From contig CAVYSY010000047.1 in NCBI GenBank assembly GCA_963771175.1, positions 1 to 64,000 on the forward strand: 64,000 bases of DNA, given 5' to 3'. The position numbers and the translations under genes are program-made. The number at the start of each line of letters is the position of its first letter. Position 1 is the first letter of the stretch. Below, piece by piece: positions 908 to 12,823 of this stretch. The notes beneath the pieces were generated by a model. That model was not told the DNA's origin. It ran no database searches and saw nothing but the letters and a program-made list of their open reading frames with translations. Origin of the DNA: an uncultured delta proteobacterium. Its GTDB lineage: Bacteria > Myxococcota > Myxococcia > Myxococcales > Myxococcaceae.

Positions 908-2711
908 ATGACGCCAGCTTTCCGCCTCGGGATTCCTTCCTGCTCCCGCCAGGTCGCGCTTCTCGCCCTGCTCGTGGCCGTCACCGCCTCCGCCCAGCAG
1001 CCGTCCCCCGCCAGACCTCCCTCCCAGCCTTCCTCCGGGGGAAACCTCGCCGCCTTCGAGGCCGCCTTGAAGGCAGACCATTTCAAGGTCCAGGGAGGAG
1101 GACGCTTCTTCCATCCACCCATCCTCGAATGGGGCTGGCGACGGTACGCTGCCGTCCTGCAACGGCCAGAACGCCGGAAACACCCCCTACCTCGCGGCGG
1201 GCTTCCCAGGTGGCCCGGGGGAGACACCTCCCTCGGATCGACTCGACGCCGATCGGCTGAAATTCCAGATGCGTCCGGATGAGGCCCTGGTGGTGATTGG
1301 CACCACCCCCCCTCAGATGGGACTACTTCAGCTTCCGGAGCTACATCATGTTCCGCTGGGTGGAATCCGAAGGCGTCCGCCGCAAGGTGTTCGTGAGCCT
1401 GGGGGATCCCCACAACATGCTCACCCTCAAGAACGCCGGGGACTCAGAGGGGGGCTAAGCTTCAACCAGCCCTACGTCATCATCATCGCCGCGGACCAGG
1501 GCACGGAGGCCCGCGTCCGCGCGGCACTGCACCAGGCCGGCTATCCGGACGACATCATCAACACCGACGTCATTCCACCAAGCATCGCCAGGCTGGGCCT
1601 GGATCCGATGAAGGACGACGAGTTCGTCTTCTTCGTGCGTATGGCGTACAGCGCCAACAAGGACGCGGTCGACCGCTACCTGGCCCATCCCCCGGCGGAG
1701 TTGCTGCGGATCACGCCCGAGCCCGCCGTTCCCGCGGCCCGGTTGCACCCGCTGCCCGTGGAAAGGCTGCGACCGCGCGGCACCGGGCGGACGAACTCTG
1801 GAGCTGCTCCCCGAGGTGGAGCAGCTACGCCAGGCCATTCTGGCGAAGTACCGTGGGATGGCCGCGGACGAGCTCACGCCCACGGTGTGGCTGCAGGAGA
1901 GCTTCCCGGCGCTCCAGGCGGACGAAGATGTGATTGGCGAGGGCCGGGACGCGCTCTACCTGCGCAACGCGGGCACGTTCTCCCTGGCGGACGACGAGTT
2001 CCTGGTCCTCTACGGCGTGAACCACCAGGCCACGGGCAAGGCCACGTACTCCAACTTCTCCATCTACGATTCCTGCAAGGCTTGTGGTGTCACAGCGGAG
2101 AACAACGCCACCTTCGCCGGCAGCGCGCGCTCCTACTTCACCCCGGCGCAGCAGCCACCCCACGTGGACCAGCTCTATGCCTGGAGGGTGGCGCGCAAGC
2201 CCCTGCACGACAAGGACCCGAAACACAGCACATTGCTACCCACAGGCCCCTGTCCAGGCGCGGTGGCCATCGGTAACCAGCTCTTCGTGGGCTTCCGCTC
2301 CTACGTGGAGCCCGCGACGGCGATCGGCCCCGACCCCGCCGAAATCCTTTTCGACCGCGTCATCAAGTTCAGCCCCAACGCCCCCGTCCTCAGCGACATC
2401 AAGTTCTCCACGGGCCAGGTGGCGGACTCGCCCTTTCCCCTCGCGCAGGTCAGGCCCGGCACTCGGTGAAGGTCAACTTCAAGATCCATAGCCCCGACAA
2501 GCAGGACGTCACCTGGACCGCCACCTTCAAGACATACGACGGTTGCGGCGAGGCGCACCCCGCCACGGGCGTGGTGCATGGCAGTGGCACCGCTTCGTTC
2601 GTCCTCACGGCCCCCAGTAGCCAGAAGACCATACTCAACCTCTGGCTGAATGCCACGGACGCCAAGGGACGGAGGGCCAAGGTGCGTGCATTCCAGGTGA
2701 GCTACGAGTGA
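908..2711 (+). CDS. Secreted hypothetical protein (several frameshifts)
   Basis: Signal-peptide-like VALLALLVAVTASA|QQ. Protein-like sequence continues across ORFs 719..1282, 1269..2276, 1816..2469 and 2466..2711 (RPDEALVVIGTTPP; YGVNHQATGKATYSN; FRSYVEPATAIGPD). Confidence 0.7.
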
Positions 2712-2740
2712 CTCGATCACCACCACGGTGGCGGCGCGCC

Positions 2741-4292
2741 TCAAGCCCGCCGGACGGTGACGCGGCGGCCGCGCGGCGTCATCGCCTCCAGGGTGGCGTG
2801 GGTCCGCTTTCGGCAATAGGTGGCTGCTCACTTCTCCGGTCGAAGATGTCACCAGCCAGCCGCTCTCGAGCCCCAGGCCCGCCAGGTATCCATCTAGCTG
2901 TGCCAGTCCTTCGTCGAGCGGGTCCTTGCTTCCGTCGCGCCACACCTTGGCGCTCCAGGGCCAGCGTGTCCGGCCCGTAGCGCAGGCATACGTCCATGCG
3001 CCCGGTGCCAATGGCGTACTCGCGCTCCAGCGTGCCGCCCCCGTTGGCCACCCGGTGCAGGAAGGCCATGAGCACCAGATGCGGGGCAATCTCGTGATAG
3101 GGCGCGGTGCCGAGCAACGGCTGACCGTGCTGGCGCCAGAAGGCGAGGAATGCCTCCATGAGCCGCCCGGTATCCAGACGGCCATCGGCGCGCAGCCAGG
3201 TGGCGGGCAGCCGGGGCAGGGACGCCACCGCCGTGTACGACAGGGTCCGGGGGACAATCTCCCGGTAGATGGGGTTGGCGATTTCAGTCCGCCCGTTGCC
3301 GCCATGCGCACCAGAGCCGAGGTCGTGGACGAAGCGGAGATCATCCTCGGGCACTTCCCCCAAGGACGTCCCGGCGAGCATCGGCTCCAGGATGCGCCGC
3401 ACCCGGGCTCGCGCAGGCGCTCGGCCAGGCTGTCCAGGTGGGTCTCCCGGCGCTCGATGAGCAGCCGCCTGGCGCGCTCGATGTGCTCGCGGTGATGGGC
3501 TGGGCGGCGTCCGGGACGAGATCCTCGACCACCTTGGCCAGGGCGTTGACGAGCCAGGGCTGGCCCTGGGTGAGCTCGCAGGCGACGGCGAGCGCCTCGG
3601 GCTCGAAGCGCTGGCCCGTGTCGGCGGTGTGCTGCGCGTAGAGCTCGGCGACCTCTCGGCGGTGAAGTCGCGCAGAGTGAGCGACTCCACCTTGATGTTG
3701 AACGGGCTGGCGGTGCCCAGGTGGTCGCGCTCGCCGGAGCCACCTTGTAGTCGCGCACGTCCCGCAGCCCGAAGAGGACCAGCGACCAGGGGAAGTGCTC
3801 GGGGCGGTTGCGGTAGCCGGTGCGCAGCTGGCGCAGCACGGACACCAGCACGCCGTCGCGGAGCGCGTCGATCTCATCCAGGAAGACGACGAGCGGACGG
3901 GGAGAGGAGCTCGGCCCAGGCCGTGAGGGCGGAGCCGATACGGCTGCCCGCGGGCGCCTCCGGGAAGGGGGGCGGTTGCAGCTCGGGCGGGAGCTGGGCC
4001 GGCCGCGTGGCGCCAATCTCGAGCATCGCGCAGTTCGGCGGCGCCGATGTCGTGGGGGAAGGCGGCACCCACCTCCATCGAGACGAGCGCGGAGACGTAC
4101 CGCCCCTCGGCGGTCAGATCCCGGGCGAGCGCGAGCAGGGCCGTCGTCTTGCCCACCTGCCGGGGGGCGTGCACGACGAAGTACCCCTTCTGGTCGATGA
4201 GCCGGCGCACCTCGGGCAGGCGCCGCATGGCCGGCAGCATGTAGTGGTGCGGCCGGCTTGCACGGACCGGCGGTGTTGAACCAGCGAGGCAT
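2741..4292 (-). CDS. AAA-like ATP-binding protein with a C-terminal PD-(D/E)XK-like domain (frameshifted)
   Basis: MPRWFNTAGPC start; Walker A HAPRQVGKTT; Walker B VVFLDEID; C-terminal REYAIGTGRMDVCL...(E)xKVWR...GLAQLDGYLAGLG. Confidence 0.85.
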
Positions 4293-4375
4293 GGAGTGAA
4301 GGTGAGCACTCGCGTCACGCCCTGGCCCCATCTTCATCGGCACACCTCCCTTGTGCTTTCCTCGGCGGTGCGTCC

Positions 4376-5230
4376 ATGAACCCCCTCCCCTTCGCCACGC
4401 CCCCCTCCCGCCCCACGGACTTCCGGCAAGCGCTCTACGCCGGGGCCGTCTTCAAGCTGGCCCCGAGCGAGGCATCGGTGCGGCTGGCGCGCGAGGTCTT
4501 CGAGCTGCTCGCGGAGACCTTCCGGGACGTGGGAGACCCGCGCGAGGCGCAGTTCCGGCTACCGGCGGCGGAGCACCTCGAGCGCCTGGGGCGCGTGCGC
4601 CAGTGCTGACCGGGGAGGCGCGCTTCCTCGCGGGCGCTCGCGCGGTGCTGGCGGCGGCGGGACAGGCGCCGGACGAGTACGCCCTCGACAAGCCGCGGCT
4701 CCGCGGCGTCCTGCACCGGGGGCATGAGATTGAAGCGGCCGCGCCCGTCTACTTCGCCCACCGCGACACCTGGTACGCCAATCCTCGGGCACAGCTCAAC
4801 TGGTGGCTCGCGCTCCACGACGGCACCGAGGAGGAGACGTTCACCTTCTTCCCCGAGGCCTTCGACCAGCCGGTGCCCAACTCCTCCTCCACCTTCGACT
4901 ACCAGACGTGGCGCACCCAGGCGGGGTGGCAGAACCCGAAGCGGGCGGCGAGCGCCGCGTACCCCACGTCCCTCGTCCCACTCGACGGGCTCCAGGAGCG
5001 GGGTTTCGCGTGCCGGACGGGCGAGGTGCTCGTCTTCTCCGCGGCGCACCTGCACCGCACGCGACCACACGCCTCGGGGCGCACACGCTTCCAGCGTCGA
5101 CTTCCGCTCCGTCCACCTCGAGGATCACCGCCAGGGTCTCGGTGCTCCCGACGTGGACAACCGCTCGACCGGCTCGACGCTCGAGGAGTACGTCCACCCC
5201 GCGGCGGCTCCCGCCGGAGGCGCATCCTGA
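4376..5230 (+). CDS. Putative Fe(II)/2-oxoglutarate-dependent dioxygenase (PhyH-like fold), two frameshifts
   Basis: Rebuilt protein has HxD (AHRDTWY), LNWWLAL, a distal His (VLVFSAAHLHRT) and RxS (TRFSVDFR), i.e. the facial triad and 2OG-binding signature. Confidence 0.7.
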
Positions 5231-8200
5231 GCCCGCCCACCGGTACCTTCTGGGAGCACTTCCGAGCCGTCGCCGCCGCGCATCCCCACCGGGTGGCGCT
5301 GGAGTCGGAGGGCAGTCGCCTCACCTACGCGGAGCTGCTCCAGCGGGCCACCGCGCTCGGGGCGCACCTGCGGCGGCTCGGGGCGGGACCCGAGTGCATC
5401 GTCGGGTTGTTCCTCGAGAAGTCCCCGAGTACGTCATCGCCCTGCTGGGTGTGTGGGCCGCGGGAGCGGCGTTCGTGCCGTTGGAGCCCACGCTGCCCAC
5501 CGCGCGGATTGACTTCATGGCGCGCGACTCGCCGGGCTCGGGCTGGTGGTGGCGCGGCGGGGTGCGGAGCCCCGGCTGGAAGGAGTGGAGGCCCGCGTCG
5601 TGCGGCTCGAGGACGTGCCGGAGAGCGCTCCGACCGGCGAGACTCCGAGCGGGTCCTCGCACCCCGAGGACCTCGCCTACGTCATCTACACCTCCGGCAC
5701 CACGGGTACACCCAAGGGCGTGCTGGTACTGCACCGGGGCTCGTCAACCTGCTGCTCGCGCAGATCGAAGCCTTCGCGCTCGACGAGACGAGCCGCGCCA
5801 TCCTCTACCTGTCGACGAGCTTCGACGCGTCGCTGTCCGACATCGGCACGGCGCTCTGTCCGGCGCGACGCTCTGCCTGCCACCCGCGCACGCGCTCCAG
5901 CCCGGGCCGGGACTCGTGGCGCTGCTCAACGGGTGGCGCATCACGCACGCGGACCTGCCCCCCTCGCTCCGCGGATGTTCGAGCCGGAGGCCCTGGCCGC
6001 CACCCTGCGGGTCCTCGTCATCGGCGGAGAGCCCTGTCCTCCCGAGGTGGTCCGGCGCTGGGCACGGCACCTGCGCGTGGTGAACGTCTACGGCCCCACC
6101 GAGGCCACCATCTGCACCAGCCTCTGCGCGTGCGATCCGGAGACGTGGACGCGCCCGCTGCTCGGTCAGCCCATTCCCAACATGTCCTGGCATGTGCTCG
6201 ATGCGCGAGGCGAGCCCGTGCCACCGGGCACTCCCGGGGAGCTGTACCTCGGAGGCGTGGGGCTGGCGCGCGCGGACGTCGAACCGCCCCGAGCTCACCG
6301 CGGCCCGCTTCGTCGAGCGGGGCGGCGAGCGCCTCTACCGCACGAGCGACCGTGTGGTGGAGCACCCGAACGGGGAGCTGGAATTCCTCGGCCGCGTGGA
6401 TCGCCAGCTCAAGCTCCGGGGCCTGCTCATCGAGCCGGAGGAGGTGGAGGCGCACCTGCTGCGCCATCCAGGTATCCAAGACGTGGCGGTCCTCAAGCGC
6501 CCGCTCGTCCCGGACGGGGAGAAGGCGCGCGCCGTGCTGGTGGCGTTCGTCGTGCCCCGCCTCCCCGGGGAGACTCCCGCGCCGGACGCGCTGCGCGCGC
6601 ACCTGTCGGGCGTGCTGCCCCGGTGGATGCTACCGCAGCGCTTCGAGCCGCTGGAGCGCCTGCCCCGCACCGTGACGGGGAAGGTGGACTTCGAGGTGCT
6701 CTCGCGCCTGCCACTCTCGGCCCGGCGGGAGGCGGACGGAGTGGTCCCTCCCGCCACCGGGCCGGAGCGGCTGCTGTGTGAGCTCTGGGAGGATGTGCTG
6801 GGCGTGGCACCCGTGGGTGTGACGGACGACTTCTTCGGGCTCGGCGGGGACTCGCTCGGGGTGCTTCAGGTCGTCGCGGCGGCCGAGGCGCTCGGGACTC
6901 CCCCTCCGTCCAGCCGCGCTGCTCGCGCACCCGACCATCTCCGAGCTGCTGGCCCACATGGGAGCCGGAGGACCGGAGCAGCCGTCCACGGACGGAGGCA
7001 TGAGCGCGGACGAACTGCGCGCGGACGTCGCACTGGGGCCCGGTTGGGAGGCCCTCCTGCACACCGCCCGCGAGCGGCCAGCGGCACCTCCTGGTGGAGA
7101 CCTGCTGCTCACGGGAGCCACGGGGTTCTTCGGCTCGCGGCTGCTGCACGAGCTGCTCCGGCGCACCAAGGCCCGGGTGCTCTGTCTCGTGCGGGCCCGG
7201 GATGACCAGGAAGCCCGGAAGCGCCTGCTGGGCGCACTCGAGGCACAAGGCACGCCGCCCTCGCGGGAGGAGGCCGCGCGTCTGGTAGCGCTCCGGGGAG
7301 ACCTGGCACGCCCGCGCTGGGGGCTCGACGAGCTCGAGTGGGAGCGGCTCACTCGCGAGGTCGGCCACATCTACCACTGCGCGGCCCACGTCAACATGGT
7401 GCTCCCGTACCACGCGCTGCGCGAGGCGAACGTCGGAGGCACCGAGCAGGTGCTGCGCCTGCAGGCGGAAGGGGCGCGCAAGTCGCTGCACCACATCTCC
7501 ACCCTGTCGGTGTTCGTGTCGACGGACAGGAATACCGGGCACCTGGAGGAGACGGACGCACTGGAGGGCCCCCAGCGCATCTTCGGCGGGTACGCGCAGA
7601 GCAAGTGGGCGGCCGAGGCGCTCCTGCGCTCCGCTCGGGGCGAGGCGGGGCCCATCACGTACTACCGGCTGGGCCTCATCACGGGCGACACGCGCACGGG
7701 GCGCGCCTCCGCGAGCGACTTCCTGTCCCTGTTCTTCCGAGGAGTGGCCTCGCTCGGCTGCATCCCGCGCGGTGCGGACGAGGGGCTCGCGGTCGACATC
7801 ACCCCCGTGGACTACGCCGCCGCGGCGGTGGCCCACCTGTCCCTGCATGCGGCCCCGGCGGAGGGCTCGTCCACCTTCCACCTCGCCAATCCCCGGCCAT
7901 TGTCGCTGCCCGTGCTGGTGGACGCCCTGCGCTCCTTTGGAATCCCCCTCACCACCGTCTCCGAGGAGGAGTGGCGGGCCCGGCTCGCCGCGCTCGCACG
8001 GGAGGAGGTGGGCTCATCCGAGGCCGCCGCGTACCTGGCGCTCTGCCGGGGCCTGTCCGGGGGCGCCTTCGAGCGACACCGGACGATGGATCTCTTCCAG
8101 GCGACGGGGGCGGAATTCGGCATGGAGCACGCGCGCGCGGGGCTGGAGGGCTCGGGGCTCTCGTGCCCACCGGTCACCGAGGCGCTGCTGCACACCTATC

Positions 8201-8241
8201 TTGGGTATACGTTCGCGCGGGAAGCAGAGGGCACAGCATGA
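5227..8241 (+). CDS. Stand-alone NRPS-like enzyme: adenylation, thiolation and terminal reductase domains (A-T-R), frameshifted
   Basis: A motifs LTYAEL, YVIYTSGTTGTPKG, FDAS, NVYGPTE, GELYLGG, GRVDRQLKLRG, LPRTVTGKVD. T motif FFGLGGDSL. R motifs LLTGATGFFG and GYAQSKW. The start is CTG at 5227, overlapping the upstream TGA, with GGAGG 6 nt upstream. Confidence 0.92.
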
Positions 8242-9285
8242 GCACGAGGAGCATTCGAGGGGCGAGCAGCGTGCGCCAGGGGACGGGCATGGTGCTCGGG
8301 AAGTTCATGCCGCCGCATCTCGGGCACGTCTTCCTGGTGGAGTTCGCGCGCGAGTACGTGGCGGACCTCACGGTGGTGGTGGGCACGCTGAAGGCCGAGC
8401 CCATTCCCGGAGAGCTGCGCCACGGGTGGATGCGCGAGCTCTTCCCGGACACGCGGGTGGTGCACCTGACGGACGAGAACCCGCAGTACCCCCACGAGCA
8501 CCCCCAGTTCTGGGACATCTGGCGAGACAGCCTGCAGCGGGTGCTGCCGGGGCGGCCGGACTACGTGTTCGCCTCCGAGGAGTACGGCGCGAAGCTGGCC
8601 GAGGTGTTGGGGGCCGAGTTCATCCCGGTGGACATCGCGCGGGGGGCGGTGCCGGTGAGTGGCACGGCAATCCGGAATGACCCGTGGAAACACTGGGACT
8701 ATCTGCCGAGGTGCGTGCGGCCCTACTTCGCTCGGCGAGTGTGCGTCTTCGGCCCGGAGTCGACGGGGAAGACGACGCTGTCGAAGCAACTGGCGGAGCA
8801 CTTCAAGACGGTGATGGTGCCGGAGTACGCCCGACTGCTGCTGGAGCCGCGGGGAGGCAAGGTGGAGCTGGCGGACATGCCGCGCATCGCACGGGGGCAG
8901 GCGGCGGCGGAGGACGCGCTGGCGCGGAGCGCGAACCGGGTCCTCATCTGCGACACCGACGTGCTGGAAACGAGCATCTGGAGCGAGGTGCTCTTCGGCG
9001 AGTGCCCGGCGCCCATCCTCCAGGAGGCGGAGCGCCGTGACTACGACCTCTACCTGCTGACGGACGTGGATGTGCCGTGGGTGGCGGACCCGGTGCGCTA
9101 CCTGCCGGACGAACGCACCTCGTTCCTCGAAGAGCCGCGAGAACGCCCTGCGCTCGCGGGGCCGACGCTACGTGAAGCTGAGCGGCTCGTGGGACGAGCG
9201 CTTCAAGAAGGCGCGAGCGGCGGTGGAGTCGCTCCTCGTGCCCGAAGGCGGAGAGTTGCTCACTTCGCTTCCGCGCGCCGGGTGA
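8238..9285 (+). CDS. nadR: NadR-like bifunctional NMN adenylyltransferase / ribosylnicotinamide kinase (no HTH), one frameshift near 9130
   Basis: GKFMPPHLGH (HxGH), VSGTAIR, Walker A GPESTGKTT, PEYAR, ICDTD, DVPWVADPVR. ATGA overlap with the NRPS stop codon. Confidence 0.88.
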
Positions 9286-10993
9286 GGGAGAAGTCCGCGA
9301 GCAGCGCCGCCAGCAGCACCAGCAGGGGCCAGCGCGCCCGGCCGGAAGAGGACTCGCCCCCATCGTCATCGCCCTCGGCTTCAGCGGGCCTGTCGCCCTC
9401 GCCACGCCCGCGCAGGTCCGACTCGCGGGCATCCAGCGCGAGCACCTCCACCGCATCCACCGGCTCGCCGTCCCGCTCCAGCACGTAGCGGCCGGGCAGC
9501 GCAGGCGGGGGCAGGCTCAAGGCGCCCGCGCCGAAGAGGGGGCGGTTCCCCTCGGGTCCCGCCAGCGTGTAGCGAGCGCCCGCCACCGTCACCAACGACA
9601 GGGGCTCGCCGAGGGAGAGCTGCCGCCGGGGGAAGCCCTCCTGGGCGCGCCGAGCCTCGCGCAGCAGGTTGCCCAGCAGCACCGGCCACGCGGCCGTGCG
9701 CTGCACGTTGGAGCGCGCGAGGTCCACGTTGAGGTGGACGCGGCCCTCCTCCTCGGAGAGGAGCACTACGGTGCCCGCCGTCACCAGGGGCCGACCCGGG
9801 GGAGCCTCGCTGCCGGCCGCCCAGCGCACGCCGCCCAGTTGCACATCATCCAGCAACGGGTGGCCCTTCTCCGCGAAGAAGGGGCCCACGAAGGTGCGCA
9901 CCGTGCCGCCCGCGCCCACCGTCACCCGCGCGTCCGTCCCCCGAGGGCCGAGCACGACGGCTCCCTCGCCGGGACCCTGCTCCACCTCGGGGGCCACCGC
10001 GAGGAAGCGCTCCAGCGCCGAGCGCGCCTGCGCATCCAGCCCCTCGGCCAGCGCCACGCGCACCCGACGCTCCGGGGCGGGCGGGAGGCGGGCCTCGCCG
10101 TCCTCGGGCAGCGCGTCCGGGGGCAGGGACACCTCCACGTCCCCGGCGTTCTCGAAGGTGAGGCGCAGCGTGGCCGCGCCCGCCTCGGGCAGCCGCATGC
10201 GCTCGCGCCGCTCGGTGCCCTCCTTCGCGCCAGGGCCGGGCCGGGCCACCACGCTCACCTGCGTCTCCTCCGGCCCCGCGCCAAAGCGCGCCAACCGCAG
10301 CGTCACCGTGGCCGTGGAGCCCTCGTCGCGGCGCCACGCGGACACCAGCGCCACGTTGTCCCGAGGCGCGCCCAGGGCCGTCCACCGCACCGCCGGGGGC
10401 ACGGCCGCGCCCTGCGCGGGCATGGCATCGGTGAGGAAGTGCACCCGCCTGCCCGGACCCGCCAGTTCCTGCGCCCACAGCAGCGTGGGCGCCACGTCGT
10501 GGTCCGCTCCGAGCGCGCGGAAGGACTCCAGCGCGGCCAGGGCCCGCGAGGGCTCCGCCTCGGGCCCGGCCAGGACACGCGGCACCGTGCCGCTGGCCAA
10601 CACCGTCACCTGCGTGGCCTTCTCCTCCTCCACACGCCGGGCAGCCTCGGCGCGCACCTTCTCCAGTACGGGGCGCCCGTCGGGCCCGCGCGCGGACAGC
10701 GAGAGGCTGCCGTCCACCACCAGCACCAGGTGCCGCGCCCGCGCCGCCTCGCCGAAGCGCACATCCGCGAGGAAGAGGGCCGCGGCCACCACCGCGAGCG
10801 CCTCCAGCAGCAGCGAGGCCTCGCGGGTGAAGCGCTCGAAGCGGGGGCCGGCCTCGGCGCGAGGGCGGGGCGTGCGCCAGAGGAAGAGGGCGCTCACCAC
10901 CACCGGATTCTGCTTGCGCCGGAGGAAGTACGCCGCCACCAGCGGCACCAGTGCGCCAAGCGCCAGCAGACCCCAGGGAAAGCCGAAGCTCAT
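9260..10993 (-). CDS. BatA-like N-terminal / VWA-domain membrane protein
   Basis: MSFGFPWGLLALGALVPLVAAYFLRRK...VVSALFLWR (BatA-type N-terminus), LVVDGSLSLS MIDAS-like motif, C-terminal TM helix; intact 577-aa ORF. Confidence 0.88.
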   Translation of the reverse strand: MSFGFPWGLLALGALVPLVAAYFLRRKQNPVVVSALFLWRTPRPRAEAGPRFERFTREASLLLEALAVVAAALFLADVRFGEAARARHLVLVVDGSLSLSARGPDGRPVLEKVRAEAARRVEEEKATQVTVLASGTVPRVLAGPEAEPSRALAALESFRALGADHDVAPTLLWAQELAGPGRRVHFLTDAMPAQGAAVPPAVRWTALGAPRDNVALVSAWRRDEGSTATVTLRLARFGAGPEETQVSVVARPGPGAKEGTERRERMRLPEAGAATLRLTFENAGDVEVSLPPDALPEDGEARLPPAPERRVRVALAEGLDAQARSALERFLAVAPEVEQGPGEGAVVLGPRGTDARVTVGAGGTVRTFVGPFFAEKGHPLLDDVQLGGVRWAAGSEAPPGRPLVTAGTVVLLSEEEGRVHLNVDLARSNVQRTAAWPVLLGNLLREARRAQEGFPRRQLSLGEPLSLVTVAGARYTLAGPEGNRPLFGAGALSLPPPALPGRYVLERDGEPVDAVEVLALDARESDLRGRGEGDRPAEAEGDDDGGESSSGRARWPLLVLLAALLADFSLTRRAEAK

Positions 10994-11002
10994 GCCGCCC
11001 CC

Positions 11003-11607
11003 TCAAGGGGAAAGCTGGCACTCCGACAGGTCGTGTCTCGCCGTGTCGCCATCAAGGCGTCCCCGCGTCAGGCGACGGGCTCCCTGCATCGGTGGAGACG
11101 GGAAGCTGACCAGCACATCCGGCGGGACAGTCACGTCGACTGCCTCGACCCCGCCATCCAGAATGACTGGCTCGGAGCCACCCGCATCGAAGCAGCCATC
11201 CTCCAGTGCGTTCCGGCTCCGGTTCTCCATCGAGCAGTCGGCGGAGGATACGGCCGTCGATGCTAATCGCATATCTCGCTCCGGAATCGAGGGAAGGGTA
11301 CGCGCGACCGCAGAAACTGGGGTCCTGCAGCATCGCCACATAGATGATCTCCCCACGCCGAACAGCGTAGTACTTGTATGCCTCTGGCGTGTCGATGCAT
11401 GCACGCGGGCCACCCCAGGCAGGGAAGAAATCGTCGGCGGCGACCTTGAGCGCTCGAAACGTCGGGCCATCAATGGGACCGCCCAGGCATGATGGACTCA
11501 TGGCTGAGCATCCGAACGCTCGAATCCTGAGGCTCAAGCCGCCCCCGGTGATGGAGACACCCCAGGGAAATGGCCATGAGCAGAAGCGCGCAAATCCTTG
11601 CCTTCAT
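11003..11607 (-). CDS. Hypothetical lipoprotein (frameshifted); paralog of 12899-13340
   Basis: MKARICALLLMAISLGC lipobox; core DGPTFRALKVAADDFFP...VRRGEIIYV...LDSGARYAISIDGRILRR. Confidence 0.7.
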
Positions 11608-11615
11608 GGCTGCTC

Positions 11616-12471
11616 CTATGCCGCCCCTGCCGGGAAGAAGAGGGGCCGCAGCGGGCCCGCCACCAGCGTGCGCAGGGCCTGGGGCGAGGGAGTCACCATG
11701 TGTGCCGCCCGGGCTCTCGCCGCCGCGGCTCCGAGGGCTTTCTGGTGCTCGGCGAAACGCCGGGCATAGGCCACCAGCACGTCCTCGGTGAGAAGCTCCT
11801 CCAGCGCCGCGTCACTCTCCGCGTCCACCAGCCGCGCGCCCTCGCCGCCCGGTGGGCTCGAGGTCCTCCGCGTCCAGCACCTGCACCAGGAAGAGGGCCG
11901 AGGCCCCCTGCGCCAACCGCGACACCAGGGCCGGCAGCGGCGCCTCGAAGAGGAAGTCGCTCACCACCACCCGGAGGCCGCACGGGCGCAGCGGGGGCAG
12001 TCGCCCGAGGGCGGCGTGCAAGTCATCCCTCGCATCGAAGGAGGCGGTGCGCAGGGCGGCGCGACACGCCTGCCCCTGCACCCGCTCCGGGCGCGAGCCG
12101 CCCACCAGCAGCGTGGGGCTGAGTCCCTGCTGCGCGCCCACCTCCGTGGCCAGCAGCGCCACCTCGCGCGCGCACCCGGCCTTGCGCGGCGACAGCGCCA
12201 TGCTGCGCGAGCCGTCCAGCAGCACCTCCACGCGCGGGGACACCTCGTCCTGGCGCACGCGGAGAATCACCTCGCCGGTGCGCGCCACCGCGTTCCAGTC
12301 CACCTGCCGCAGGTCGTCTCCGGGCTGGTAGGCGCGGAAGTCGTGCAGTTCCAGCGAGGCGCCCGCCGAGGCCGCGCGCACCTCGCCCACCCGGCCCCGA
12401 TGGGGCGTGCGCGGCAGCGCCAGGGCGAGCCCCGGGGCCAGCCGGGCCACCTCCGCCTCGTCGAAGTCCAC
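11616..12471 (-). CDS. DUF58 family protein (MoxR partner), one frameshift near 11830
   Basis: GASLELHDFRAYQPGDDLRQVDWNAVART and VLLDGSRSM, the DUF58 signature. Confidence 0.9.
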
Positions 12472-12481
12472 GGGGGCGTCA

Positions 12482-12823
12482 CGCTACCCCGATGAAAGCC
12501 TGGGCTACGTCTTCGTCGTCCACAACCATCCCGTCGGGCTTGAGCTGTCTCGTTACGACATCCAGTTCATCGTGGCGCAGGCGGCGCTTCACGGATTGAC
12601 CACGAAGGTGGGCAATCGCGAGCTACACATCAGCACCGTGGCTTTCTTTTCCAACTCATTTGGCGGCCAGAACGCCCATTGCGATGGATTCTTTCAATAC
12701 ATTCCAGCAACGGGAGAACTCCTGAAGTGGACCATGAACGCTCGCGGGGAATGGGACAAGGAGCAGTTAGGCTGAGTCATCTGGACCGGGCCCGAGAAGT
12801 TCGAGATCCGCCGAAAGAATTGA
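12482..12823 (+). pseudogene. 5'-truncated remnant of a JAB/JAMM-like (HxH..S..D) protein gene, with an in-frame TGA at 12773
   Basis: RYPDESLGYVFVVHNHPVGLELSRYD...VAFFSNS...CDGFFQYIPATGELLKW...LG*VIWTGPEKFEIRRKN*. No start codon, and A/T-richer than the flanks. Confidence 0.55.

Follow-up and report, generated by a model that had tools for sequence, protein, structure and literature searches.

Why should an Fe(II)/2-oxoglutarate oxygenase, an NRPS-like reductase and a NadR-type protein be encoded by three interlocked genes? The question is raised by positions 4376-9285 of the window, by which we mean the whole 64,000-nucleotide stretch of uncultured Archangium DNA that was analysed. An earlier note, made from the letters alone, had proposed that the trio encodes an undescribed pathway. 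We conclude with high confidence that the three genes are real and that they belong, as a module, to a widespread cassette of which we found no description in the literature and which is split in Archangium. The core claim of the earlier note survived its own refutation tests as far as these were run, although the note missed the larger cassette and an intact second copy of the trio. The features concerned are the following.

4376..5230, plus strand: PhyH-type Fe(II)/2-oxoglutarate oxygenase (intact length 284 aa; frame breaks at 4602 and 5091)
5227..8241, plus strand: NRPS-like A-T-R reductase lacking a condensation domain (intact length ~1004 aa; A ~5260-6690, T ~6771-6960, R ~7108-8235; frame-broken at 5422, 5530-31, 5735, 5856, 5970, 6280 and 6897)
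8238..9285, plus strand: HTH-less bifunctional protein of NadR type (intact length 348 aa; NMN-adenylyltransferase-like domain ~8283-8735, ribosylnicotinamide-kinase-like P-loop domain ~8736-9250; frame-broken at 9130)
9260..10993, minus strand: BatA/VWA gene (Pfam BatA and VWA_2), context outside the cassette
2301..4343, minus strand: ORF homologous to an AAA-like gene of congener G012 (blastn and tblastn synteny), the second part of the operon that the trio interrupts

The three same-strand genes overlap by four bases at each junction, exactly as the earlier note had claimed. The oxygenase gene runs from an ATG at 4376 to a TGA at 5228-5230, and this stop overlaps the A-T-R start position, a CTG at 5227; G012 has GTG at the equivalent codon, which gives a GTGA overlap. 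The A-T-R stop and the NadR start share ATGA at 8238-8241. The NadR-like stop codon lies at 9283-9285, and the 3' end of the gene is overlapped by the convergent BatA/VWA gene (577 aa, unbroken in every relative). That the trio separates two genes of an operon to which it is unrelated is borne out by G012, in which DUF58, BatA/VWA and the AAA-like ORF, which directly follows BatA, are contiguous on one strand with the trio beyond them, whereas G011 and the window have the trio between BatA and the AAA-like block. The AAA-like ORF of G012 (L010:11050-12600(-)) gave weak AAA_16 and AAA_22 matches; the window ORF at 2301..4343 had no Pfam match.

Pfam searches of the window reading frames found AMP-binding pieces in three frames, together with AMP-binding_C, PP-binding, NAD_binding_4 (203.9 bits) and AAA_28 (109.5 bits). 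An intact trio, 98.7% identical to the window copy, is carried by contig C30 of the same genome, where BatA/VWA is duplicated along with it. Intact trios also occur in 4 of 17 congeners, and all three genes are single-frame on C30 and in G006, G011, G012 and G014. The window and C30 copies are separated by 10 indel events, at the frame breaks listed above. We consider these breaks probably assembly errors, since rpoB (3 pieces), rpoC (4) and nadD (2) are frame-broken in the same assembly and other window genes are broken too (8 frame changes in 5 of the 7 ORFs orthologous to G006, ~10.5 kb, ~0.8 per kb). Several of the indels also fall in short homopolymer runs, and the region lies 4-9 kb from the contig end. 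The other reading, possible rather than probable, is that the duplicate in the window is decaying and its 10 indels are real, so that only the C30 copy functions. It draws on the lack of any frameshift in C30 and on the placement of the indels, all of them inside the 4.9 kb trio, where they are ~2.6 times as dense as frame breaks elsewhere in the window, and none in the adjoining 1.7 kb of BatA. Mismatches point the same way, with 23/44 at codon position 3 in the trio versus 20/25 in BatA; such indel density and weak codon-position bias fit relaxed constraint as well as error. Logan contigs from four public runs, which come from 3 studies and represent relatives 90-99% alike, carried the frame-restoring state at at least 7 of the 10 sites, each in at least 2 covering runs, among the matches listed; these runs cannot decide between error and decay because none is the source sample.

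Characterisation of the encoded proteins was based on the intact C30 copy. The oxygenase (L013:10510-11364(-), protein P0002) reached no Pfam cut-off, its sole match being 2OG-FeII_Oxy_5 at 15.4 bits versus a cut-off of 27, and PF05721 (PhyH) did not match at E up to 0.1, while some homologues have a precomputed PF05721 match. The 2-His-1-carboxylate triad (H129-x-D131 and H227) and R238 were invariant in 38 aligned homologues. The AF2 model (pLDDT 94, pTM 0.91) matched the fold of PtlH best (Z 16.3, rmsd 3.6, 231 residues aligned), followed by H11 proline hydroxylase, PHYHD1, EvdO2, KanJ and GriE; the PHYHD1 and PhyH structures matched with Z ~13.3. Foldseek assigned the fold a probability of 1.00. 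Distant oxygenase relatives (32-39% identical) adjoin TylF-type methyltransferases in glycan clusters.

The A-T-R protein matched Pfam AMP-binding (291 bits), AMP-binding_C, PP-binding (52.7) and NAD_binding_4 (201.6), and exceeded the NCBIfam cut-offs for TIGR01733 (395 versus 317.4) and TIGR01746 (315.9 versus 213.35). Its translation contains GGDS, GATGFFG and YAQSK, which we take to be the carrier serine (GGxS), Rossmann (GxxGxxG) and R-domain (YxxxK) motifs. The ORF begins ~10 residues ahead of the A domain, with no condensation domain. Its best NCBIfam matches were MxcG, AusA, the TIGR01746 thioester-reductase and Lys2. The best over the whole protein was the A-T-R part of MxcG, the myxochelin NRPS (NF038078, profile positions 459-1434); assignment as an MxcG equivalog was rejected at 607.3 bits versus a cut-off of 2300, with the C-A-T-R length not covered.

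Specificity positions of the A domain, read by motif offsets with GrsA numbering, were constant as D-A-S-D-[VI]-G-V-[IV]-C in 14/14 family members in which motif A5 was found. To our knowledge, D-A-S-D-V-G-V-I-C matches no known specificity code. The code appears closest to Glu/Gln codes, at a level (6/10) that a Tyr code equals. The comparison code is DAQDLGVVDK, given for both Glu and Gln in PMC12283262, with which 6 of 10 residues are shared.

The trio is co-conserved elsewhere, in distant lineages and in differing gene orders. The full cassette, which occurs in many uncultured bacteria, consists of a Zn-dependent MDR alcohol dehydrogenase (ADH), an AsnB-type glutamine amidotransferase, an optional class I SAM methyltransferase, the PhyH-type oxygenase, the A-T-R enzyme and the HTH-less NadR-like protein. 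In 25 loci the sequence extends at least 4 kb upstream and at least 4.5 kb downstream of the oxygenase gene; of these, the NadR-like gene was present in 17, the A-T-R gene in 14, ADH in 13, AsnB in 13 and the methyltransferase in 15. The corresponding counts for the 16 of these metagenome or genome loci with an oxygenase at least 40% identical were 14, 12, 11, 11 and 13; the two close loci without a NadR-like gene were L043 and L061. Locus L018 has the oxygenase and NadR-like genes without A-T-R. At least five cassette gene orders were seen, on both strands, and in L026, L045, L054 and L058 the A-T-R and NadR-like genes are 3-18 bases apart. A reverse query of 401 Myxococcota genomes showed an A-T-R gene beside all 8 places where NadR matches at 55% identity or more, and beside none of 23 loci with NadR matches of 27-41%. 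Every sampled member of this NadR subfamily lies within the cassette and in no other context. That three unrelated genes stand side by side by chance, without functional meaning, is contradicted by this co-conservation despite shuffled order, by the overlapping stop and start codons and by the cassette-specific NadR branch described below; no observation speaks for it, and we regard it as very improbable.

In Archangium the cassette is split, with the trio in the window and on C30 and an ADH-AsnB pair on contig C33. Orthologs of this pair (at least 95% identical) were found in the own genome, in 3 of 4 trio-bearing congeners and in none of 13 trio-less congeners; G012 has the trio and lacks the pair. 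The AsnB ortholog on C33 shares 57% identity with the L016 member (Asn_synthase 236 bits, GATase_7 133 bits), and the L066 member exceeds the TIGR01536 cut-off (437.9 versus 267.1 bits). No clear homologue of the cassette methyltransferase was found in the own genome. Full-text literature searches returned neither a description nor a product of the cassette, in line with the earlier statement that no characterised cluster is known to join the three activities. We likewise know of no description of a constant partnership between an A-T-R enzyme and a NadR-type gene.

The NadR-like protein (AAA_28, 132.5 bits) aligned across both domains with NadR structures 8x7f (140.8 bits), 1lw7 and 9x6f, and was 30-40% identical over its full length to the NadR proteins compared. 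It scored 301.9 bits against TIGR01526 (NMNAT/RNK equivalog domain), below the cut-off of 341.15; the L066 member scored 261.4. It lacks the N-terminal HTH: the PRK08099 match starts only at profile position 63 of 411, and no more than ~15 residues precede the NMNAT domain. The motifs PPHLGH and VSGTAIR (adenylyltransferase) and GPESTGKTT (kinase Walker A) are present, and HxGH, SxTxxR and Walker A are kept in 19 of 22 aligned cassette members, a count that excludes the L006 and L007 rows (wrong coordinates). The three exceptions, L023, L032 and L040, have a true nadD gene directly upstream, have lost HxGH and SxTxxR of the NMNAT domain and keep the kinase domain; L025 has the same layout. This variant suggests that the adenylyltransferase step is still needed there.

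A stretch that reads 'P-N/H-G-W' in solved NadRs is 'P-D/Q-F-W' in the cassette clade. A NadR tree, among the checks named in the earlier note, placed all 22 cassette NadRs on one side of a single branch (support 65/91, in 66% of bootstrap trees), moderate support for a branch of their own. The gene is accessory, occurring in 4 of 17 congeners and always within the trio, and the genome also has nadD (in two pieces), another point the earlier note had singled out; together with the cassette-specific branch, this shows that NadR is not the ordinary sole salvage enzyme. Classical NadR pairs with PnuC. PnuC, which the earlier note called absent from the window, was not found in the 82%-complete genome either (PF04973, 0 matches; the control matched in 4 of 14 genomes). 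Phage NARP3 pairs its NadR, Bas30_86, with PnuC, according to PMC13464706. Residues that mutation or structure has shown to bind NR, NMN or NAD in Bas30_86 were mapped by hand onto the cassette protein from our alignment, with an inferred 6-residue tag offset. On this mapping K10, F11, P84, F110, S112, V139, R167, E230 and D275 are kept, D115, I141 and K168 are replaced by E, V and R, and S37 and K163 by G and P, which the E. coli-type structure 8x7f also has; the placement of E80 and G89 is uncertain owing to an insertion.

What the NadR-like enzyme does in the cassette can be read in several ways. Of the three options in the earlier note, a small amino aldehyde or alcohol modified by NadR fits best, ahead of a self-resistance copy and of maintenance of the NAD pool. 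From the enzyme families encoded, the product is best read as an amino aldehyde or alcohol of Gln/Glu type, hydroxylated, which the NadR-like protein would phosphorylate and adenylylate. Each step is proposed from family membership. A Glu/Gln-type amino acid would be amidated by the AsnB-like enzyme, hydroxylated by the oxygenase, free or on the carrier domain, and adenylated and then loaded on the T domain. The R domain would release the loaded residue as an alpha-amino aldehyde, whose oxidation state ADH may adjust, most simply to the primary alcohol. The NadR kinase domain could then phosphorylate the primary hydroxyl of an intermediate or product resembling nicotinamide riboside (cationic nitrogen, carboxamide, primary alcohol), after which the adenylyltransferase domain would add AMP to give a nucleotide-activated or NAD-like compound. 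We put the whole statement, the conserved cassette plus a putative amino aldehyde/alcohol pathway with the NadR-like enzyme acting inside it, at about even chances; the in-pathway role of that enzyme, taken by itself, is offered more tentatively.

Since the catalytic motifs are kept, as are, on the hand mapping, most of the NR/NAD-contacting residues named in the NARP3 paper, ordinary conversion of nicotinamide riboside to NMN and NAD is fully possible, and this keeps the earlier options of self-resistance and NAD-pool maintenance alive. Under this textbook role the protein would keep the NAD pool up; in variants of it, it would bypass NAD synthesis where the product inhibits this, or protect the producer from such a product, or recycle the NAD that the pathway uses up. 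The two-domain alignment with solved NadRs, a TIGR01526 score close to its cut-off and the lineage in which the module adjoins a true nadD agree with it. Yet the genome yielded neither PnuC nor another gene for NR uptake, the cassette loci have no further recurrent family, all sampled subfamily members lie within the cassette, the P-D/Q-F-W change marks the clade, and it is the NMNAT motifs that the nadD-adjacent variant has lost. Taken jointly, the textbook role and its variants seem rather unlikely to us. A more remote idea comes from chloramphenicol, where a 3-O-phosphotransferase masks a product made via an A-T-R enzyme and a beta-hydroxylase. By analogy, the NadR-like protein might O-phosphorylate or O-adenylylate the amino-alcohol product and so mask it inside the producer, as self-resistance or as a prodrug. 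The combination of A-T-R, hydroxylase and P-loop kinase parallels that logic, and the A-T-R and NadR-like codons overlap or nearly abut; on the other hand, the loci share neither an exporter nor a phosphatase that could unmask the product, the residues that appear to be kept belong to an NR/NAD enzyme, and there is no known bioactivity, which makes such masking improbable. The preferred reading thus stays the in-pathway modification of an amino aldehyde or alcohol.

Set against known systems, each enzyme has relatives from which it departs. Like PtlH, H11, GriE, KanJ and EvdO2, the oxygenase has a double-stranded beta-helix fold, an HxD...H triad and a conserved Arg, but it is just 12-18% identical to any solved member. 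The A-T-R enzyme shares the A, T and R domains and all core motifs with the A-T-R part of MxcG, the second module of AusA, Lys2-type alpha-aminoadipate reductase and carboxylic acid reductases; it has no condensation domain and scores far under every equivalog cut-off. Stand-alone A-T-R reductases are expected to release an aminoacyl thioester reductively, which yields an aldehyde or alcohol. The NadR-like protein shares the two-domain layout, HxGH, SxTxxR and Walker A and, on the hand mapping, most named contacts with NadR, including Bas30_86 as described in PMC13464706. It differs in lacking the HTH and a PnuC partner, in scoring below the TIGR01526 cut-off, in its separate branch, in being always embedded with the oxygenase and A-T-R genes and in reading P(D/Q)FW for PxGW.

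At pathway level, minimycin is linked to indigoidine-type enzymes. These NRPS-like enzymes activate glutamine and build pyridine-dione rings, as PMC12283262 mentions; they resemble the cassette in that a single-module enzyme carries an A domain of Gln type, putative in the cassette, and form a six-membered nitrogen ring from glutamine, but use Ox and TE domains rather than R. In this comparison the cassette is without a ribosyl-transfer enzyme. The chloramphenicol pathway, with its A-T-R enzyme CmlP, beta-hydroxylase CmlA and chloramphenicol phosphotransferase, is similar in that an amino acid handled by an A-T-R enzyme is hydroxylated and reduced to an amino alcohol, whose primary hydroxyl is the target of a P-loop kinase. 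There, however, the hydroxylase is diiron rather than 2OG-dependent and the kinase is of a different family, and to this logic the cassette adds an adenylyltransferase domain and an AsnB-type amidotransferase.

The three genes lie on the forward strand of the window, which has a G+C content of about 72% and comes from a 9.8-Mb assembly in 58 contigs that is 82% complete. They were read as follows:

4376-5230 (+): oxygenase gene, from ATG at 4376 to the stop TGA at 5228-5230
5227-8241 (+): A-T-R gene, with CTG at 5227 as first codon, overlapping the oxygenase stop, and its end at 8239-8241 within ATGA
8238-9285 (+): NadR-like gene, from ATG at 8238 (in the same ATGA) to the stop at 9283-9285

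The codons read at 4376, 5227-5230, 8238-8241 and 9283-9285 therefore confirm the coordinates and the stop/start overlaps that the earlier note had assigned to this trio; in the congener G012, GTG stands at the A-T-R start-codon position and gives a GTGA overlap. A GC3 plot showed that the coding frame shifts many times. In the window frames, Pfam recovered AMP-binding in pieces over three frames, then AMP-binding_C, PP-binding, NAD_binding_4 and AAA_28. The oxygenase had no Pfam match in the window's own frame fragments and was recognised only via an intact copy on another contig (C30), alignment and fold prediction. Pfam was mostly empty for the flanking ORFs of both copies.

Window positions 4320-11002 are repeated on C30 (37419-30738) with 98.7% identity, and all three genes run in one frame on C30 and in the congeners G006, G011, G012 and G014. 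Within the first 20 kb, C30 and the window's contig share only this 6.7-kb segment and a 0.5-kb upstream piece. In the adjoining convergent BatA/VWA gene (BatA, 9260-10993, - strand), 20 of 25 mismatches fall in codon position 3, and this bias shows that the contigs carry truly diverged copies rather than a single locus assembled twice.

Ten indel events separate the window from C30 (4602, 5091, 5422, 5530-31, 5735, 5856, 5970, 6280, 6897 and 9130), all inside the trio and none in BatA, several of them in short homopolymers. Assembly error is the probable cause: in the same assembly rpoB is split over three frames, rpoC over four and nadD over two (C25:92475-100856 and C50:20593-21121), and at window positions 13.4-35.5 kb five of seven ORFs orthologous to intact G006 ORFs shift frame, eight times in about 10.5 kb. 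Real indels in a decaying copy are a smaller but still considerable possibility, favoured by an indel density in the trio (10 in 4.9 kb) about 2.6 times the window background and by a weaker bias to codon position 3 among the trio's mismatches (23/44) than in BatA. No public run contained the exact stretch (best word share 0.42). In Logan contigs of four runs from three studies (relatives 90-99% alike, none of them the source), 7 of the 10 sites, among the rows listed, had a state that restores the frame in two or more of the runs covering them. From this it follows only that no other sequence compared shares the indels of this contig, since Logan contigs of relatives are silent on whether the source reads carry them. 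With frame-breaking indels in essential genes and in at least five other window genes, ORF-based readings of this genome need frameshift-tolerant methods.

The surroundings of the trio are rearranged among relatives. The 3' ends of the NadR-like and BatA genes overlap by 26 bases (9260-9285), and the last ~12 residues of the NadR-like protein vary among congeners, coinciding with a rearrangement junction at 9247-9260. A block of about 1.6 kb, holding the AAA-like ORF that follows BatA (window 2725-4313; 11044-12620 in the G012 locus L010), is on the left side of the trio both here and in G011, on its right side in G012, and is missing from the C30 copy. Nothing corresponding to positions 574-2724 occurs in the loci of relatives that were compared, and 562-763 resemble a stretch inside the AAA-like block.

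The proteins were characterised from the intact C30 copy. The oxygenase (284 aa) had a sub-threshold Pfam match only, and at least 158 homologues were found, some with PF05721 or named phytanoyl-CoA dioxygenase. H129, D131, H227, R238 and S240 are invariant in 38 aligned sequences. Its AF2 model (pLDDT 94, pTM 0.91) resembles PhyH-type enzymes, the closest fold being PtlH (Z 16.3, rmsd 3.6, 231 aligned), followed at Z ~13 by proline hydroxylase H11, PHYHD1, EvdO2, KanJ, FtmOx1 and GriE. The A-T-R protein matched AMP-binding (291 bits), AMP-binding_C, PP-binding and NAD_binding_4 (201.6 bits), exceeded the cut-offs of both TIGR01733 and TIGR01746, and contains GGDS, GATGFFG and YAQSK in translation; Pfam and NCBIfam placed no condensation domain in it. 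Its best full-length match was the A-T-R part of MxcG, far under the cut-off of that model. The NadR-like protein (348 aa) scored 301.9 bits against TIGR01526 (cut-off 341.15) and 132.5 bits against AAA_28, with no HTH in the profile match, and aligned across both domains with structures 8x7f, 1lw7 and 9x6f. Most NR/NAD-binding residues named in the NARP3 paper on a phage NadR homologue (PMC13464706) are kept, as mapped by hand from the structure-sequence alignment.

A query with the oxygenase returned five genome loci; in metagenomes, at least 527 stretches encode an oxygenase relative, among the 600 candidate stretches listed, and 80 loci were kept. By tblastn, ORF clustering, Pfam and NCBIfam, the oxygenase, A-T-R and NadR-like genes recurred along with genes for an alcohol dehydrogenase, an amidotransferase and a methyltransferase.

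Cassette genes beside the oxygenase gene. Counts are for loci whose sequence extends 4 kb or more upstream and 4.5 kb or more downstream of the oxygenase gene (n = 25) and for those with an oxygenase at least 40% identical (n = 16); 2 of the 25 are Archangium relatives and therefore not independent.
Gene; all loci; close loci
NadR-like; 17/25; 14/16
A-T-R; 14/25; 12/16
Zn-dependent MDR alcohol dehydrogenase (ADH; best but weak matches to threonine or sorbitol dehydrogenases); 13/25; 11/16
AsnB-type amidotransferase (AsnB; TIGR01536 437.9, above 267.1); 13/25; 11/16
Class I SAM methyltransferase (~255 aa); 15/25; 13/16

The co-conservation that the earlier note had proposed to look for in gene neighbourhoods thus holds, the cassette genes recurring across metagenome loci in shuffled orders: oxygenase-ATR-NadR, NadR-MT-oxygenase, ATR-NadR-MT-oxygenase, oxygenase-MT-NadR-ATR and split-strand forms. 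Loci with the full cassette span 42-73% G+C and come from soil, freshwater and marine samples; among loci with a computed G+C content the values run from 42% to 68%, against about 72% for the window. ORF clustering and Pfam found no conserved flanking genes around the cassette loci. Six of the 25 loci lack any cassette partner. In five of these the oxygenase is 33-38% identical and has TylF- or CmcI-type methyltransferases, epimerases and glycosyltransferases as neighbours; the sixth, a Haliangium locus (L017, 38%), offers just a distant NRPS, encoded on the other strand. The more distant relatives of the oxygenase (33-39% identical; L062, L069, L073, L074, L084, L086-L089) are directly followed by a TylF-type methyltransferase gene and sit among CmcI-type methyltransferases, NDP-sugar epimerases/dehydratases and glycosyltransferases, neighbours which tie one branch of the oxygenase family to glycans. 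In two low-G+C loci of marine or other origin, the gene after the A-T-R gene encodes a nitroreductase-family protein and may have an accessory role; its orientation differs between the two (L066:12727-13398, - strand; L094:13861-14532, + strand).

In Archangium the cassette is split. Contig C33 carries homologues of the L016 ADH (51% identity) and AsnB (57% identity) side by side, both in one frame and next to a TetR gene. Orthologs of this pair at least 95% identical occur in the genome itself and in G006, G011 and G014; they are absent from G012, which has the trio, and from all 13 trio-less congeners, with only a 54% paralogue in G003. The pair largely follows the trio distribution, a pattern that is suggestive rather than statistical because the genomes are kin. 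In the C33 locus (L151, G000:C33:543000-562000), a convergent TetR-family regulator gene and, 2 kb upstream, a second gene for a Zn-dependent dehydrogenase lie at 4942-5919 and 11083-11745, and in G006 and G014 a paralogue of AsnB (54%) is located some 44 kb away from the ortholog.

One idea was that the methyltransferase catalyses an indispensable first step, for example as a 3-amino-3-carboxypropyl transferase making a pyridinium amino acid. This idea was dropped because the search of the Archangium genome gave no clear homologue and loci L016, L064 and L065 have no space for such a gene between the AsnB and oxygenase genes. The ESM Atlas gave only generic class I methyltransferase clusters for it, and PDB sequence searches with the methyltransferase and the ADH gave generic relatives only. 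A methyltransferase usually accompanies the oxygenase, in cassette loci and in the distant glycan-cluster relatives alike, in line with an optional tailoring sequence of hydroxylation and then methylation.

The reverse query found a NadR homologue in 30 of 401 Myxococcota genomes. Eight places are at least 55% identical to the NadR-like protein (two in the genome itself, four in congeners, one each in G090 and G105) and all eight adjoin an A-T-R gene; none of the 23 NadR loci at 27-41% identity has a cassette gene within 1.5 kb. The NadR tree and the genome search for nadD, both suggested by the earlier note, were carried out. The maximum-likelihood tree covered 43 homologues; two sequences with an internal stop (L035, L055), two partial ones (L148, L150) and the almost identical Archangium sequences of G011, G012 and G014 were excluded. 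A single branch separates the 22 cassette NadRs from the other homologues (support 65/91, in 66% of bootstrap trees), consistent with a single origin. The genome has nadD besides its NadR-like copies, and no PnuC family match was found in the 82% complete assembly.

In a reduced module (L023:1105-5400, L025, L032 and L040), NadD, a NadR-like protein with degenerate adenylyltransferase motifs, methyltransferase and oxygenase follow one another in this order, with no A-T-R, ADH or AsnB within 7 kb. The motif alignment, from which the L006 and L007 rows were left out, showed that the NadR-like proteins of L023, L032 and L040 have lost HxGH and SxTxxR and kept the kinase motifs, so the kinase is the partner that stays with the oxygenase throughout. 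Directly upstream in these three, and in the similarly arranged L025, lies a true NadD gene (NF000840 262.8, above 150); an adenylyltransferase thus also seems to be required. Within the cassette NadR clade, the NadR-like proteins of the reduced module occupy a long branch.

The specificity positions of the A domain, in GrsA numbering, read D-A-S-D-[VI]-G-V-[IV]-C by motif offsets in all 14 members with motif A5 among 19 examined, the motif registers having been checked against LgrA alignments. This constancy makes one substrate likely for the whole A-T-R family. A Tyr code shares six of ten positions with the cassette code. Equally many, with two more similar, are shared with DAQDLGVVDK, which PMC12283262 reports for Glu as well as for Gln. 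With a substrate of the Gln/Glu type, the AsnB-type enzyme would have an evident function. In the pathway that we propose, a Glu/Gln-type amino acid would be amidated and hydroxylated, reductive release would yield an amino aldehyde that the ADH then adjusts, and the NadR-like enzyme would phosphorylate and adenylylate an NR-like intermediate or product.

One specific form of this scheme, which we consider improbable but worth stating, is that the cassette turns a glutamine-type amino acid into an NAD mimic. Hydroxylation and reductive release would give hydroxy-glutaminal or its alcohol. The compound could stay open-chain, resembling nicotinamide riboside in its cationic nitrogen, carboxamide and primary alcohol, or ring closure through the amide nitrogen with loss of water could lead to a pyridone ring; the cassette NadR would next phosphorylate and adenylylate it to a dinucleotide analogue. 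The main rival to the proposed pathway, that the NadR-like enzyme simply makes NAD from NR or NMN, for supply, bypass or self-protection, is more credible than this specific form, though still a doubtful one; we retain it because the catalytic motifs and contact residues are conserved.

If the NAD-mimic scheme is true, amino acids would be converted by a widespread and previously unknown route into a pyridine-nucleotide-like metabolite serving as antimetabolite, signal or cofactor. More generally, with a NadR-like enzyme acting on the pathway product, nature would have a way of making a nucleotide-activated amino alcohol or an NAD analogue, which would bear on antimetabolite discovery and on NAD-centred microbial conflict, a topic of current interest. 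Should the enzyme do no more than make NAD, the cassette would exemplify a biosynthetic cluster with its own cofactor supply or bypass.

What the analysis shows is the gene content, its co-conservation, a cassette-specific NadR branch of moderate support and a constant A-domain code. Searches of literature full text that covers few subscription journals found no paper on this cassette. Oxygenase relatives nevertheless occur in more than 500 metagenome stretches. Each enzyme comes from a familiar family; as far as our searches show, it is the fixed pairing of an A-T-R enzyme with a dedicated NadR-type kinase/adenylyltransferase that has not been described, which would make this an NRPS-like reductive cassette whose NadR-type partner has no precedent in that literature.
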